Assembly: GCA_026026165.1 (NCBI GenBank)
Contig: JAPEUD010000037.1
Location: 1 to 64,000 of the forward strand
Source of the DNA: Sarea resinae
Lineage: Eukaryota
Reading direction: 5' to 3'
Length of the DNA: 64,000 nucleotides
Part shown: piece after piece, positions 1,472 through 29,724 of the stretch
Layout: every line of letters begins with the position of its first letter
Numbering within the stretch: position 1 is the stretch's first letter
The notes under the pieces: model-generated
What the model saw: only the letters and a program-made list of their open reading frames with translations
What the model was told of the DNA's origin: nothing
Database searches by the model: none
Translations under genes and position numbers: made by a program

Positions 1472-3247
1472 TCATTTGCCCCCGTCCTTTTCGGTCTTGC
1501 TGCCGAAGATCAGATCGTATGACCTGCTGATCCGATTGCATGTCTCTGTCTTATTGCCGCTCCGTTTTCCACTTTCTTGTGCTTGTCCTTGTCCCCGCTT
1601 GCTGCTGTTCGCAGTGACTGCTCTCCCTCGCCGCTCGCCCTTGTCGTCTTTGTGCTTCTCGTCCTCGTCCTCCCAGGCCGAGAAGCCAAAGCCGGGCTCA
1701 CACGCGACCCACTTCATCTTCTCGTAGACGGCTTTCTCGATATCGCGGCCGAAGCGACGCTCGGAATCGGCGGCCGAGCCGTACATACGCCAATCGCGCT
1801 GTTCGAGGCTGTAAGGGTCGAGTTTGGGAGGGCGATCGCAATGGAGGAAGAAGGGGCGCGGGTCGGGGAATTTGCAGGCTGGTGGTGAAGATGGGGATGG
1901 TAAAGAAGGACTCGAGGAGGGCGACGCTAAGAGGGAGGATGCTGTGGAGGCGGGTTGCGTGGTGTTGCCAGCGTGGTGGTTCAGGCAGAAGTCGTCCGAG
2001 GGATGGGATTGGATCATCGCATAGCCTTGGAAGGTGTAGTCGCTTGGGTGACCCAGGGGCTCCGGAAGAGTGTGGACAAAGTACGGCTCTTTCGTCTCCA
2101 GCGAAGAAGAAGAGGAAGACGAAGATGAAGAAAAAGGAGAATTGGTGAGGTTGTTAATCACACGCACAGCAGCAAGAAAGGTATCTTTGTCGCCCTGTCC
2201 CGGTCCGTCTTGCGTTAGAAGTGGATAATAAAATTCGCCGTAGGTGTTGTAGTACGCTGCTAGCAACAGCGCCGGGATATGGTGAGCCTTGGACACAAGG
2301 ATCTGGCCGGCCTCCATGGTGGGCGTTGACAGGAAAGCGGCGGGCGCCAAGCCGGCGATGGAGTAATACTGTGACGAGGCCGTCGAGGTCCAGTAGTCCG
2401 GCCAGAGAACCATGCGATGCGAGAGAAAGGGCTCCGACACGAACAGCTCGTCGGGTTGGCGCACGGGAAAATCATCGGCGTCGAGGAAGAGCACGGATTC
2501 AAAGGACGAGAACAAGATGGCGAAGATCTTGAGCTGGTACTTGGTGTAGCGGAATCGGAGTTTGCTTGTCTCGGTGACGTCTGACACGAAGACGCAGCGG
2601 GCGTTCAAGGGCGGTAGCACCTCGTCGCAGATGGCGGGCTCGTATTCATCCGCCGAGGACATAAAGACCTCAACCGGCAGCGTGGTTCCCGTATCGCGGA
2701 GCATCAGAAGAGAGACCAGCATGATGGGGAGGAAGCGTCCCCCGGCAGTAAAGACGATGCCCCTGGTGTCATTGGTGTAGGGCAGTCTCAGAGCCGGGGC
2801 GCGCGCCATCATGTTCTCCACGAACCACGCATGCTTGAGCTGGAGGTCCTCGAGGTCCTCGTGGGACATGTCGATTTCCTGGTCTTCGGGCCATGTGGCA
2901 CTGTCGTCCCACTGATAGCGCAGTGCGTACGCGTGGGATCGTGGATTCGGAATCGAGGCCTGCGGACGGGCGGCGGCCAGCAGCTCAGAGAAAGACGGCC
3001 AGAAAGCTTCCTGCGACGTGTCGAGGAGAGGCTGTTCGGGAGCTGGTGCAATGCTATGGCTGCTGCTGAGGACCGAGCGCTCGGACGGGGAATACGGCCA
3101 CGAGCCGTGCGAGTAGATGTAAAAGAGTGAGATGCTGGCGAGGAGGGCCAGGAGCAGGATTCCTGCTTTCCGGCCGAGGTCTTGTCGCATCGGGTCGTGG
3201 ACTCGTGATTGGGGTCTCTCTGGACGGAGAGACCGACGACTCTTCAT
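1472..3247 (-). CDS. Alpha-1,2-mannosyltransferase, GT71 (Mnn2/Mnn5 family), intronless; start may be the second Met near 3190
   Basis: N-terminal signal-anchor (AGILLLALLASISLFYIY); motifs RGIVFTAGG, LPVEVF, YQLKIFAILFSSFESVLFLDAD (DxD), LWPDYW, EAGQILVSK, GQGDKDTF. Confidence 0.9.
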   Translation of the reverse strand: MKSRRSLRPERPQSRVHDPMRQDLGRKAGILLLALLASISLFYIYSHGSWPYSPSERSVLSSSHSIAPAPEQPLLDTSQEAFWPSFSELLAAARPQASIPNPRSHAYALRYQWDDSATWPEDQEIDMSHEDLEDLQLKHAWFVENMMARAPALRLPYTNDTRGIVFTAGGRFLPIMLVSLLMLRDTGTTLPVEVFMSSADEYEPAICDEVLPPLNARCVFVSDVTETSKLRFRYTKYQLKIFAILFSSFESVLFLDADDFPVRQPDELFVSEPFLSHRMVLWPDYWTSTASSQYYSIAGLAPAAFLSTPTMEAGQILVSKAHHIPALLLAAYYNTYGEFYYPLLTQDGPGQGDKDTFLAAVRVINNLTNSPFSSSSSSSSSSLETKEPYFVHTLPEPLGHPSDYTFQGYAMIQSHPSDDFCLNHHAGNTTQPASTASSLLASPSSSPSLPSPSSPPACKFPDPRPFFLHCDRPPKLDPYSLEQRDWRMYGSAADSERRFGRDIEKAVYEKMKWVACEPGFGFSAWEDEDEKHKDDKGERRGRAVTANSSKRGQGQAQESGKRSGNKTETCNRISRSYDLIFGSKTEKDGGK

Positions 3248-25583: not shown

Positions 25584-26837
25584 TCAAACCGTACCAACAG
25601 GCCTCTCGACCACATCCATCACGCCATTCACCACATTGGCCCGAAGCTCCTCTGTCGCCACCTTGGGCCCGGCAAGATAATGCAGCAACAAGGCCCTGCC
25701 GACGCGCTCGTCCTCGATCCGGCCCAGCTCGACCAGCTCGTCGACGTGGGCCTGCGCGCCCTGCGGCGTCGACGAGCCATCATACAGCACCTGCAAGACG
25801 CCGCTGCTGCCGTCGCGCACCAGCAGGAGCGACTTGGCCTTGGGCACGTTCTTCCGGGCGCCGCCGCCGAAGATGCGCTTGAACTCGGCCATGGCGGCGC
25901 CGAACTTGTCGTCGTCGAACTCGGTGACGGCGCCGTGGCCGCCCGCCGCCTGCAGCGCCTTCTGCGTGCGGCTCGTGACTGCTCGTACCCAGGCGTCGCG
26001 CAGGTGGTGGAAGTCCGTGTTCCGCGTCGGCGTGATGCGCAGTACCATCTTGGCGCCGCTGTCGCGCAGCACGCGGCCCCACACCTCCTCGCTGCCGTCG
26101 GCGTCCAGGAGCCGCGACCGCAGCGCATCTTTCTCGGGCCCGACGAGCGTCGTCGCGCTGGTTTCCGTCGGCGTGGCGGCGTCGATCAGCGTGCTGTGCA
26201 GGGCCGAGAGCGAGGGCGCGCTGATGTAGAGGCCGGCGATGTAGACTTGGATCCCAAGGAACGAAACCGTGCGGATGCCGTGCCCGAGGAGACTGTAGGA
26301 CTCTGAAGTCTGTGTCGCCGGTGCCGACGATGACGACGTTGGCGCACCAGTTGTTGACGTTGGCGTGGAGAGGGGCAAGGTCAGCGTGCGGGGGATGTAG
26401 GGGATGTGCTTGCTGCCCGTCGCGACGACGTCTTTCTCTTCTTCGGCATCCTTCTCCGCGCCGCTGATGACGGGTGTGCCCCGGTCCAGCTTCGCCATCG
26501 TATCCTCGGGAGCCGCATCATTCCTGTCCAGGTCCGAATTGGCCACGATGAGCCAGGTGAGCAGGATCGTAACGACGGTGCCGGCGCCGGCGTAGTACGT
26601 GCGGCGCTTGTGGTATTCGCGCTCTTCGGCTTCCTTTCGGTGCTGTGCGATTGGGTCTTGGTTCGTGTCGGCGGGCTGCTGTGACGATTGGGCGTTGCTG
26701 CTGGCGGGCCGCCGCGCGCTGGATGCGAATCGGTGCTGCTGGATCAGGGAGAGCATTGGTCGAGCGGTACTGCTGTGGAAGAGACATTGCTGCGTGAGGG
26801 GCTGGCGGAGCAGCCGCGAAGCATTCTGAAGACGCAT
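25584..26837 (-). CDS. AIM18: Aim18/Aim46-like chalcone-isomerase-fold mitochondrial protein (upstream in-frame ATG at 26951 is an alternative start)
   Basis: Arg-rich presequence MRLQNASRLLRQ, one TM segment, motifs YSLLGHGIRTVSFLGIQVYIAGLY, LRITPTRNTDFHHLRDAWVR, LLHYLAG. Confidence 0.82.
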   Translation of the reverse strand: MRLQNASRLLRQPLTQQCLFHSSTARPMLSLIQQHRFASSARRPASSNAQSSQQPADTNQDPIAQHRKEAEEREYHKRRTYYAGAGTVVTILLTWLIVANSDLDRNDAAPEDTMAKLDRGTPVISGAEKDAEEEKDVVATGSKHIPYIPRTLTLPLSTPTSTTGAPTSSSSAPATQTSESYSLLGHGIRTVSFLGIQVYIAGLYISAPSLSALHSTLIDAATPTETSATTLVGPEKDALRSRLLDADGSEEVWGRVLRDSGAKMVLRITPTRNTDFHHLRDAWVRAVTSRTQKALQAAGGHGAVTEFDDDKFGAAMAEFKRIFGGGARKNVPKAKSLLLVRDGSSGVLQVLYDGSSTPQGAQAHVDELVELGRIEDERVGRALLLHYLAGPKVATEELRANVVNGVMDVVERPVGTV

Positions 26838-27255: not shown

Positions 27256-27874
27256 TTAAACAGCACCTGCCTCCCTCAACAGCTCAGCCAGCTCGCCCTT
27301 CTTGGCTTGGAGGTCCGAGTTGCCACCAATGTGCTTGTGGTTGATGAAGATGTTGGGCACGGAGCGTTGGCCGTTGCTTAATTCCTCGAGGGCCTTTTGG
27401 ATAGCGGCGCCATCATCTGGAAGTTGTATCGCAATCAGATAGGAACGAGAACAGAGGTGATTGGCATGGAAGAGACGAGCCGGGTATCAAAAGCAGCGCA
27501 GGAGTAGGACATACCGATCTCATCCAGCTCAAGGATATAAGGCTTAGCACCGAACTCGCTCAGCGTCTGCTTCGTCTGCTTGCAGTAGGGGCAGTAGGAT
27601 TTGCTGAAAACCGCTGGATCATTGTAGTCATCGTTAGCTACAGCCCGCATCATATCTGCCCTCTGCAAGGCGCGTGCATTTCATCGCTGCTGCTCCCTCC
27701 TATTCTATACTGATCATGTCCTCTCTTTTTTCTTCCTGCTTCGATTCCGACCAGATTCTCTTCCTTTTCTCATGAAATGGAGGCGAGGGGCTGCACCACA
27801 GCGATGCGGAAGAAGAACTCACCAATGGGGTTGTTGTCGATGATGTTCTGGGCCTTGGTCTTAGCGGCAGACAT
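27256..27874 (-). CDS. GRX1: Dithiol glutaredoxin (Grx1/Grx2 type), 3 exons
   Basis: MSAAKTKAQNIIDNNPI/AVFSKSYCPYC...LELDEI/DDGAAIQKAL...GQRSVPNIFINHKHIGGNSDLQ; CPYC active site; intron 1 27614-27822. Confidence 0.95.
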
Positions 27875-28885
27875 GGTGGCGGGGTCGGGGCTCGTAAAAG
27901 ACGAGAAGAATCGGCGGAGGAAAGACGTGGTGGGCGATTTGCGTCCAGAAAGCTTTAAATGTAGTTATTCGTTGTGATCTGGGGGGTTCGACGGTAAGTT
28001 GAAGGGAGCAAGAAGCTTTATATGAGAAGGCGGTGGCGGAAGGTTGTTGAATCCGATGGATCGATTTATGATGAAGATGTGTATGTAATCACGACTGGGC
28101 TAGATCCGATGATGCAATTGCATGTGGGTAAATTGGCGGATGGTGTGTGATGACAAAGCGAGCCTTGCGGCTTCAGGTACCAGGCTTGAACGTCGAATAT
28201 CGATCAGACTATTGCCTCTGTTGATTGTCATGTTTATTTGCGTTCAGAGTGAAGATCCTCATTGGATTATCTTTAGGATGCGTTGGATGTTTCCCTCTTC
28301 TCTCCAATGGGTTTAATACAGTGGTACAGATGGAGATATATTTAATTTGATGAGTTTAGAATATATTTATCTCCTTAGTCTTCAACCAATAAACTAAAAA
28401 TTACCCTGCATCTTGAATAGCTAGGCCAATTCTGCGTGAGAGATCATTCTCGAGAATCTCCGAGACTTCTCTGACTCTCTGGTCCAGTGGTGTCTTGGTC
28501 CATCTACCCAGAAGACTGTAGTCCGCATCGAAGATCGTATAACAATAGCAAAAGAGGGGTAAGCTCGTCTTACCATCAGGACATGCTACTGGTATTCAAT
28601 GGTTCAGGCTGTCGTTTCTGCCCATAAGCTTAGGGATATAAGAAAGCCATCCGAGTATTTCATGCACAGGAAAGTATGCTTGAGACGTTCGACTGAATTG
28701 CGTACTGCTTGCCTCATCTTTTCAAGAGTCGAGGCAAAGAAATAATTACAATCCTACTCAGCATCTCAATAGACGCACACTTGTACTCCCTTGACAATAT
28801 TGAGCTTATTCAAGTCTGTCCTTGCACCACAATCAGGCGAACGACACAATGCTTACAGCGATAGCTCTCTCACACTTCGTACAAT

Positions 28886-29724
28886 ATGACAGAGATCTCG
28901 CTCGCAGGGAAAACCTGCATCATCACCGGCGCAGCGGGCGGTCTAGGCAGGGCCATCGCTGAGACGTTCCTCAAGGCTGGTGCAAACGTGGTTGGCTGCG
29001 ACATTAACCTCAGCCTTCTCGAGGCCACCGCTCAAGAAATCTCCCCGCTGGGTAACTTCGAAGGTGTCCAGACAGACATCACGTCAGCGGAGTCCCTGTC
29101 AGTACTCTTCGACAAGGCGATCCGCAGATTCGGACGTCTAGATGTATTGGTCAACAATGCTGGCATCATGGACCGCTTTGATCCCGTCGGCGACTTGGAA
29201 AAGGATCTGTGGGATCGTGTCATAGCAGTCAACCTGACCGCGCCCTATCTGACCAGCAAGCTAGCCGTCAATCATTTCCTGAGCCATGAGACTGGCAAAG
29301 GTGTCATCCTCAACATAGGTTCCGCATCTGGCCTGTGTGGCTTTCGAGCCGGTGAGGCTTTTCCTCTCGAGCTCACACATCGGCTTCATAATGACCAACG
29401 TCTACGTTCGTAGGTGCCGCGTACACCGCTAGCAAGCACGGCTTAGTGGGCTTGACCAAGAACACGGCTAGCTTCTACGGCAAGAGAGGTATTCGATGCA
29501 ATGCCATTCTGCCGGGTGCTATGGAGACTAACGTCGGCGACGCGTTCAAATCCGGAATGAATGGTGAAGGTTTGGCTCTGCTCGAGCAGCAGATGAAGGG
29601 GACCCCGCCCGAGAAATGTGAACTGAGTGATGTGTCGAACCTTTGCTTGTTCCTCTGCTCTGATGCTTCAGCCGCGTTAAATGGTGTTTGTGCGCCTGCA
29701 GATCGGGGTTGGACGAGCATCTAG
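28886..29724 (+). CDS. Classical short-chain dehydrogenase/reductase, 2 exons
   Basis: TGAAGGLG, NNAGI, NIGS, YTASKHG (YxxxK), IRCNAILPG; intron approx. 29352-29413. Confidence 0.93.

Follow-up and report, generated by a model that had tools for sequence, protein, structure and literature searches.

The 64,000-nucleotide stretch of Sarea resinae DNA analyzed here (the window) contains a glutaredoxin gene on the minus strand, with three exons encoding a 103-residue protein that has a CPYC active site. Exon 1 codes from the main ATG (27872..27874, in the context GCCACC-ATG-T) and spans 27823..27874, exon 2, which holds the CPYC site, spans 27515..27613, and exon 3 runs to the stop codon (27256..27416). 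All three exons are covered by RNA contigs. The two GT..AG introns are 209 nt (27614..27822) and 98 nt (27417..27514) long; the joint 27613/27823 is found in RNA contigs from both runs and the joint 27416/27515 in run X1. A database protein, P0001, carries the source label Sarea resinae (Sareomycetes), is 100% identical and begins at the main ATG. It matches the glutaredoxin domain (PF00462, E 6e-18), and with CPYC in exon 2 the gene counts as a dithiol (CPYC) glutaredoxin. The C-terminus encoded by exon 3 has no PTS1-like ending. An earlier sequence-only reading had singled out the interval 27872..27934, which covers only an N-terminal extension of this three-exon gene. Downstream, at 25584-26834 on the minus strand, lies a gene for a chalcone-isomerase-like protein (PF16035) with an ATG-started, presequence-like N-terminus; it is therefore probably mitochondrial, and we take it to resemble yeast Aim18/Aim46. 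A divergent short-chain dehydrogenase gene (28874-29724, plus strand) lies about 1 kb above the glutaredoxin gene.

A glutaredoxin family search of the genome assembly, which is possibly incomplete, gave five matches in four genes among the best candidates scored. Besides the window gene these are L001 (thioredoxin fused to CGFS), L002 (a CGFS protein whose start looks like a presequence) and L003 (a CPFS protein that is hydrophobic over an N-terminal stretch). CPYC occurs only in the window gene, which is the sole classic dithiol glutaredoxin found in the genome within those same bounds. When P0001 itself was the query, the best candidates scored included only the window gene and L003.

Upstream of the main ATG, on the same strand, an ACG (27926..27928) follows the Kozak-like context CCCACC (27929..27934, with A at −3). 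The sequence-only reading had placed this codon exactly 18 codons upstream in a context mirroring that of the ATG, and the letters bear this out: CCCACC-ACG-T (27928-27926) and GCCACC-ATG-T (27874-27872) are 54 nt apart. The interval contains no stop codon, so far as the 18 codons from ACG to ATG are concerned, and translates as TSFLRRFFSSFTSPDPAT; this 18-codon extension (27875..27928) is a putative short mitochondrial presequence. Since the P0001 model starts at the ATG, the annotation misses the extension, as had been expected. Thirteen codons above the ACG, the frame is closed by a TAA (27965..27967), and it is correct that, reading upward, no in-frame ATG is met before it: between 27875 and 28122 none of the frames contains an ATG, and the nearest, at 28123, is cut off by a further in-frame stop (28102-28100). 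One X1 contig differs at 27966 and so loses the TAA; the window's frame would still reach the stop at 28102-28100 before any ATG.

Other routes to an upstream start were considered and rejected. The only other in-frame near-cognate codons in the leader, ACG 27895 and AAG 27955, both have T at −3, and the former also lies below the conserved motif described later. An upstream exon supplying an ATG by splicing is contradicted by the longest stretch of leader in the X1 contigs, which has no joint between 27823 and 28006. A downstream hairpin that could aid initiation at the ACG was sought, and no stable one was found (z −0.98). In the same leader, an out-of-frame ACG with A at −3 opens a five-codon frame (27972-27955, minus strand), and a TATAAA hexamer (28022-28017, minus strand) sits 11 nt upstream of the point where the longest RNA contig ends.

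Transcription across the ACG was checked with RNA contigs from two runs, X1 and X2, of two studies. The best-covered contig, X1 record 1 (525 nt, 13 differences, depth 263), has both introns spliced and covers 27823-28006 without a joint, which gives a transcribed leader of at least 78 nt above the ACG in one contig (27929..28006). Five of its differences fall within 27823-28006; two are placed (27956 and 27966), and none is listed in the extension. X2 record 13 spans 27823-27929 with no differences and ends one base above the ACG. The ACG is thus present in spliced RNA in these two contigs, with no intron between it and the ATG. A transcription start below the ACG, named beforehand as an observation that would tell against the extension, is not what the contigs indicate, with the limit that a contig end is not a transcription start, so that they give neither the start site nor the share of transcripts that carry the ACG. 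Two loose ends in X1, at 27900 and 27935, apparently belong to the glutaredoxin of another fungus that matches just that stretch; if both come from one shared record, this sequence apparently continues in frame to its own Met.

Because contigs are blind to start sites, it is conceivable that both protein forms exist and are separated mainly by alternative transcription starts, a long mRNA including the ACG and a short one beginning below it. The end of X2 record 13 just above the ACG would suit such an arrangement, and excerpts of a study of Cryptococcus describe some synthetase genes with transcription starts between the two codons (PMC7049704). On the other side, X1 record 1, at depth 263, reaches 78 nt above the ACG, and a weak codon in a strong context is what leaky scanning needs, whereas a dedicated long mRNA could simply use ATG. 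We consider a split by transcription starts quite unlikely.

A near-cognate codon is by itself weak grounds for an extension. The chance that a 30-codon open leader contains one is 0.96, or 0.52 with A at −3, and a putative upstream near-cognate codon is reported for 4457 of 6664 yeast genes (PMC6582344, in excerpt). The combination of [CG]CCACC with a near-cognate codon is rarer (10 occurrences in 128,000 positions, or about 0.002 per leader, for a pattern picked after the site had been seen). The extension could on such grounds be a product of chance, or a pyrimidine-rich element of the 5′ UTR that only resembles a presequence when translated, and comparison with orthologs bears directly on this question.

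A scan of metagenomes gave eight loci, of which L007 is cut off below the site and was excluded, leaving seven informative loci in five lineages. At the position homologous to the ACG, six of the seven loci, in four of the five lineages, have ATT with A at −3. The distance from ATT to ATG is 17 codons in L006/L008, 19 in L009, 16 in L010/L011 and 17 in L012, the leader of which has one extra residue; the spacing thus varies from 16 to 19 codons and yet remains in frame in all four ATT lineages. L006 matches the window exactly over the 12 nt preceding the start. ACG itself occurs in none of the four motif-bearing lineages. The remaining locus, L013, has neither the motif nor a near-cognate codon with A at −3; it is a fungal glutaredoxin without an FLRRFF-like leader, which would reflect either loss or a paralog. 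In L008 the frame is open to an ATG 81 codons further up, so a longer form is possible there. DNA changes within the extension are weakly skewed to the third codon position (4/3/7 for the three positions; five synonymous, five not). A pattern scan of viral contigs yielded unrelated genes, with no glutaredoxin in the 20 commonest translations, and a scan of contigs of prokaryote genomes gave five loci in bacterial records that are uninformative for leaders.

Protein homologs extend the comparison. An unbiased set was obtained by searching with exon 3 alone, and among the 120 matches listed of 229, an FLRRFF-like motif is present in 15 of 15 readable leaders before the core Met. The remaining 105 are uninformative on the leader, being partial or mis-spliced or beginning at the core Met or close to it; most homolog models among those listed are about 102 residues long and start at the downstream Met. 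An enriched set was collected with a profile that included the extension, bringing the total to 196 proteins: 57 with at least eight residues above the core Met, 121 with fewer and 18 that were not parsed. The strict motif pattern is found in 51 of the 57 leaders (47 of them unique) and looser versions in the remaining six. A further search of 50% representatives was dominated by multi-domain proteins, and 13 of 150 were examined, which added three motif-bearing proteins and two ATG-started Sordariomycete leaders.

In the 47 unique leaders, the residue at the ACG position is Ile in 23, Met in 15, Thr in five, Ala in two, Leu in one and Phe in one; both Ala leaders have Ile one residue earlier. 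The background rate of Ile upstream is 6%, and since all three Ile codons are one base from ATG, Ile at this position is by definition encoded by a near-cognate codon. The preceding residue is Thr, Asn, Ile or Lys in all 23 Ile leaders (background 23%), which implies A at −3. Thr at the start position, preceded by a residue whose codon starts with A, recurs in five leaders. In all nine Met leaders that show upstream sequence the preceding residue is Ser; as all nine are Xylariales or Xylariales-like, these count as about one event. A TCN codon for that Ser would probably leave the Xylariales ATG leaky, in weak context. Column entropy falls from 3.0-3.5 bits at positions −12 to −4 to 1.75-2.35 over −3 to −1 and 0.25-1.3 in the motif columns, where the pattern used for anchoring partly forces the values down. 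Being in frame and free of stops is likewise a matter of construction for leaders in protein databases, and the lineages are not independent.

By source label the Ile leaders come from Dothideomycetes, Leotiomycetes, Lecanoromycetes and Eurotiomycetes, and the Met leaders from Xylariales, Gaeumannomyces and Zarea. In Sordariomycete relatives the start is a true ATG. Near-cognate codons and ATGs taken together, such a start stands at the homologous position in five further classes of filamentous ascomycetes, with class assignments checked for three species and presumed for the rest. Of what the sequence-only reading had expected from an alignment, the conserved motif and the ATG, the latter in Sordariomycetes, were recovered; a conserved ACG was not. 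Judged from these sequences, ACG is a minority codon in this glutaredoxin family and ATT or another Ile codon is usual. Failure of the extension to be conserved had also been named as a weakness to look for; the start, as a near-cognate codon or ATG, and the FLRRFF-like motif are conserved, and L013 lacks them.

Some leaders are longer. Ten proteins of Xylariaceae type (P0136-P0138, P0144, P0148, P0160-P0162, P0164 and P0185) and three of Hortaea/Salinomyces type (P0122, P0123 and P0129) have a further ATG-started extension. These extensions resemble one another and reach about 25-40 residues above the FLRRFF-like motif, which suggests a third start or a longer presequence; given these upstream ATGs in Hortaea and Xylariaceae, Thr in those leaders need not be a start. 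In P0011, P0029 and P0080 the leader is about 26-28 residues long, with an Ile start after Ala-Thr and an insertion before the motif.

Taken against these comparisons, chance or an untranslated pyrimidine-rich element is extremely improbable and already largely refuted. The weak third-position skew would suit it; however, 15 of the 47 leaders begin the same peptide with a true Met, conservation sets in at the start position and its Kozak positions, and the frame is kept across variable spacing in all four DNA lineages. The extension is real and conserved and, as judged from sequence comparison, very likely functional. A different concern is that the presequence is genuine in the family and vestigial here, an ancestral ATT or ATG having become an ACG at which initiation is now negligible. 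The minority status of ACG, with its absence from the four ortholog DNA lineages, and the case of L013, where the feature can be absent, are compatible with such decay. Yet the context and motif are intact in the window, Thr with an A-starting codon before it recurs, and no other dithiol glutaredoxin was found in the genome to serve mitochondria. Excerpts of two studies also describe ACG as a working start, in extracts of N. crassa (PMC5487733) and in yeast ALA1 (PMC5666671). We therefore think it very unlikely that the extension is a relic.

The extension had been described as presequence-like, and the description fits, with the qualification that it is short. By our own calculation its first 12 residues contain two Arg and no acidic residue, with net charge +2 and a helical moment of 0.82, giving the basic, acid-free, amphipathic N-terminus of a presequence; the moment exceeds that of shuffles of its own residues at p=0.045. 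Among the window's 8,385 open frames with a near-cognate start, only 11 equal the extension on moment, charge and R-3 motif together. In the orthologs, Arg occupies motif position 4 or 5 in 45 of 45 cases, and 44 of 45 lack Asp and Glu over the first 12 residues. At 18 residues the extension falls short of the 20-60 usual for presequences (PMC7723863, in excerpt, also the source of the Arg spacings of cleavage motifs), and cleavage would remove about 6-14 residues. Its Arg residues are placed as in R-2/R-3/R-10 cleavage motifs. The window peptide fits both the R-3 and the R-10 residue pattern, and the orthologs are R-3-like in 8 of 41 and R-10-like in 26 of 45; a family-wide R-3 site was rejected on this count.

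The short signal and inconsistent cleavage motifs leave some room for an extension that is translated from the ACG and does not deliver the protein to the matrix, serving instead as a surface anchor, directing it to the intermembrane space or another compartment, or affecting only stability. A small fraction of yeast Grx2 is located in the intermembrane space, according to the accessible part of PMC11653698. The conserved Arg, aromatic face and absence of acidic residues nevertheless fit a presequence. No nonapeptide matches a cryptic PTS2, and a signal peptide was rejected because the extension has no hydrophobic core (best eight-residue hydropathy only 0.54). We regard a destination other than the matrix as unlikely.

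The reading we favor, and hold to be quite probable, is that, through leaky scanning, one mRNA yields mainly a cytosolic form and, to a minor extent, a mitochondrial form started at the ACG. Dual targeting through a non-AUG start was the interpretation originally proposed, and the RNA contigs over the ACG and the conservation of the extension argue for it. Transcription would begin above the ACG, as some transcripts at least show. Of the scanning ribosomes, a small share would then initiate at the ACG with Met, helped by its strong context, as conservation and known near-cognate initiation suggest. Most would go on to the strong ATG and presumably produce the 103-residue cytosolic enzyme. Sequence features suggest that the 121-residue long form, with its short basic amphipathic presequence, would pass through TOM/TIM23 into the matrix and be trimmed by MPP and Icp55 or Oct1. 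There, glutaredoxin, glutathione and a mitochondrial glutathione reductase may reduce glutathionylated proteins, a step suggested by family knowledge and by two in-frame ATGs on the genome's glutathione reductase gene. Relatives would arrive at this split through ATT in strong context or through a Ser-preceded ATG, probably in weak context.

The glutathione reductase gene (L139, minus strand) has its in-frame ATGs at 3225 and 2961, 88 codons apart, with an Arg/Ser/Leu-rich, presequence-like spacer between them. Its product is a plausible matrix partner of the long glutaredoxin, and the two-ATG layout resembles that of yeast GLR1.

Two forms of Grx2 are made from two AUGs in yeast. The window gene resembles S. 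cerevisiae Grx2 in that a single glutaredoxin gene would give a mitochondrial long form from an upstream start and a short cytosolic form, as set out in excerpts of PMC11653698, where Glr1 is said to use the same scheme. It differs in its upstream ACG, its 18-residue leader and the missing annotation. For near-cognate starts of mitochondrial isoforms, the accessible parts of two papers describe yeast ALA1 (ACG) and GRS1 (UUG) (PMC5666671) and Cryptococcus ArgRS (cccaccAUU) and LeuRS (gccaccACGAUU) (PMC7049704). As in these cases, a weak codon stands in a strong context upstream of the main AUG, and its CCCACC is the context of Cryptococcus ArgRS. The same excerpt of PMC7049704 describes fungal lineages swapping a weak AUG and a near-cognate codon at mitochondrial starts. 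Near-cognate-started isoforms are also described for yeast Adh4, Trr1, Trz1 and Hyr1 (PMC11653698 citing PMC6582344, in excerpt). In the sources as accessed, the known cases belong either to tRNA synthetases or to enzymes of budding yeast, and several are supported by experiment, whereas the present one is a filamentous-ascomycete glutaredoxin argued from conservation only.

Dual targeting by alternative initiation in fungi other than yeasts is described in excerpts of work on Ustilago maydis Pgd1 (PMC7214817) and Aspergillus fumigatus Bol3 (PMC11285713). What Pgd1 acquires is a peroxisomal PTS2, which is absent from the glutaredoxin extension, and the cytosolic form of Bol3 starts at an AUG downstream of an annotated targeting sequence, unlike the arrangement here. 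For N. crassa cpc-1, near-cognate output in vivo was below 1% of that of AUG (PMC5487733, in excerpt). No report of a non-AUG presequence on a filamentous-fungal glutaredoxin was found in literature that includes few subscription journals and is accessible in part, and neither "glutaredoxin" nor an N. crassa gene identifier had a match in one supplementary file of PMC7049704. What would be new is a near-cognate-started presequence on glutaredoxin across filamentous ascomycetes; the mechanism and the dual targeting of Grx2 are known.

What gives the finding weight is how widely it extends among filamentous ascomycetes, together with the swaps of codon and the extension's absence from annotation. 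If it is correct, most filamentous ascomycetes make a mitochondrial form of their main dithiol glutaredoxin that annotation lacks, and work on knockouts or N-terminally tagged versions of this gene would call for re-reading. The family would also provide a natural series of ATG, ATT and ACG starts, with context apparently shifting in step, as a test bed for the mitochondrial share. A broader proposal, which we consider possible and on balance doubtful, is that the mitochondrial thiol-redox network of filamentous ascomycetes is supplied in large part from hidden starts: ATT or ACG for glutaredoxin, a non-AUG leader for thioredoxin reductase and two AUGs for glutathione reductase. Start-codon stringency would in that case be one dial for mitochondrial antioxidant capacity under stress, and the proposal would explain why N. 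crassa, in the words of a preprint accessible in part, "seems to lack a mitochondrial TR" (bioRxiv 10.1101/2025.04.24.650474).

A non-AUG mitochondrial form of thioredoxin reductase is possible at L146. The gene (L146:1059-1305, plus strand) has an in-frame leader that stays open for 82 codons, and no ATG occurs over 400 nt; within the leader a CTG with A at −3, at 1146, is followed by an Arg/Ser/Phe-rich stretch. The leader motif IAAAASLQQK is shared with P0451, the sole long readable leader among 32 N-terminally complete homologs.
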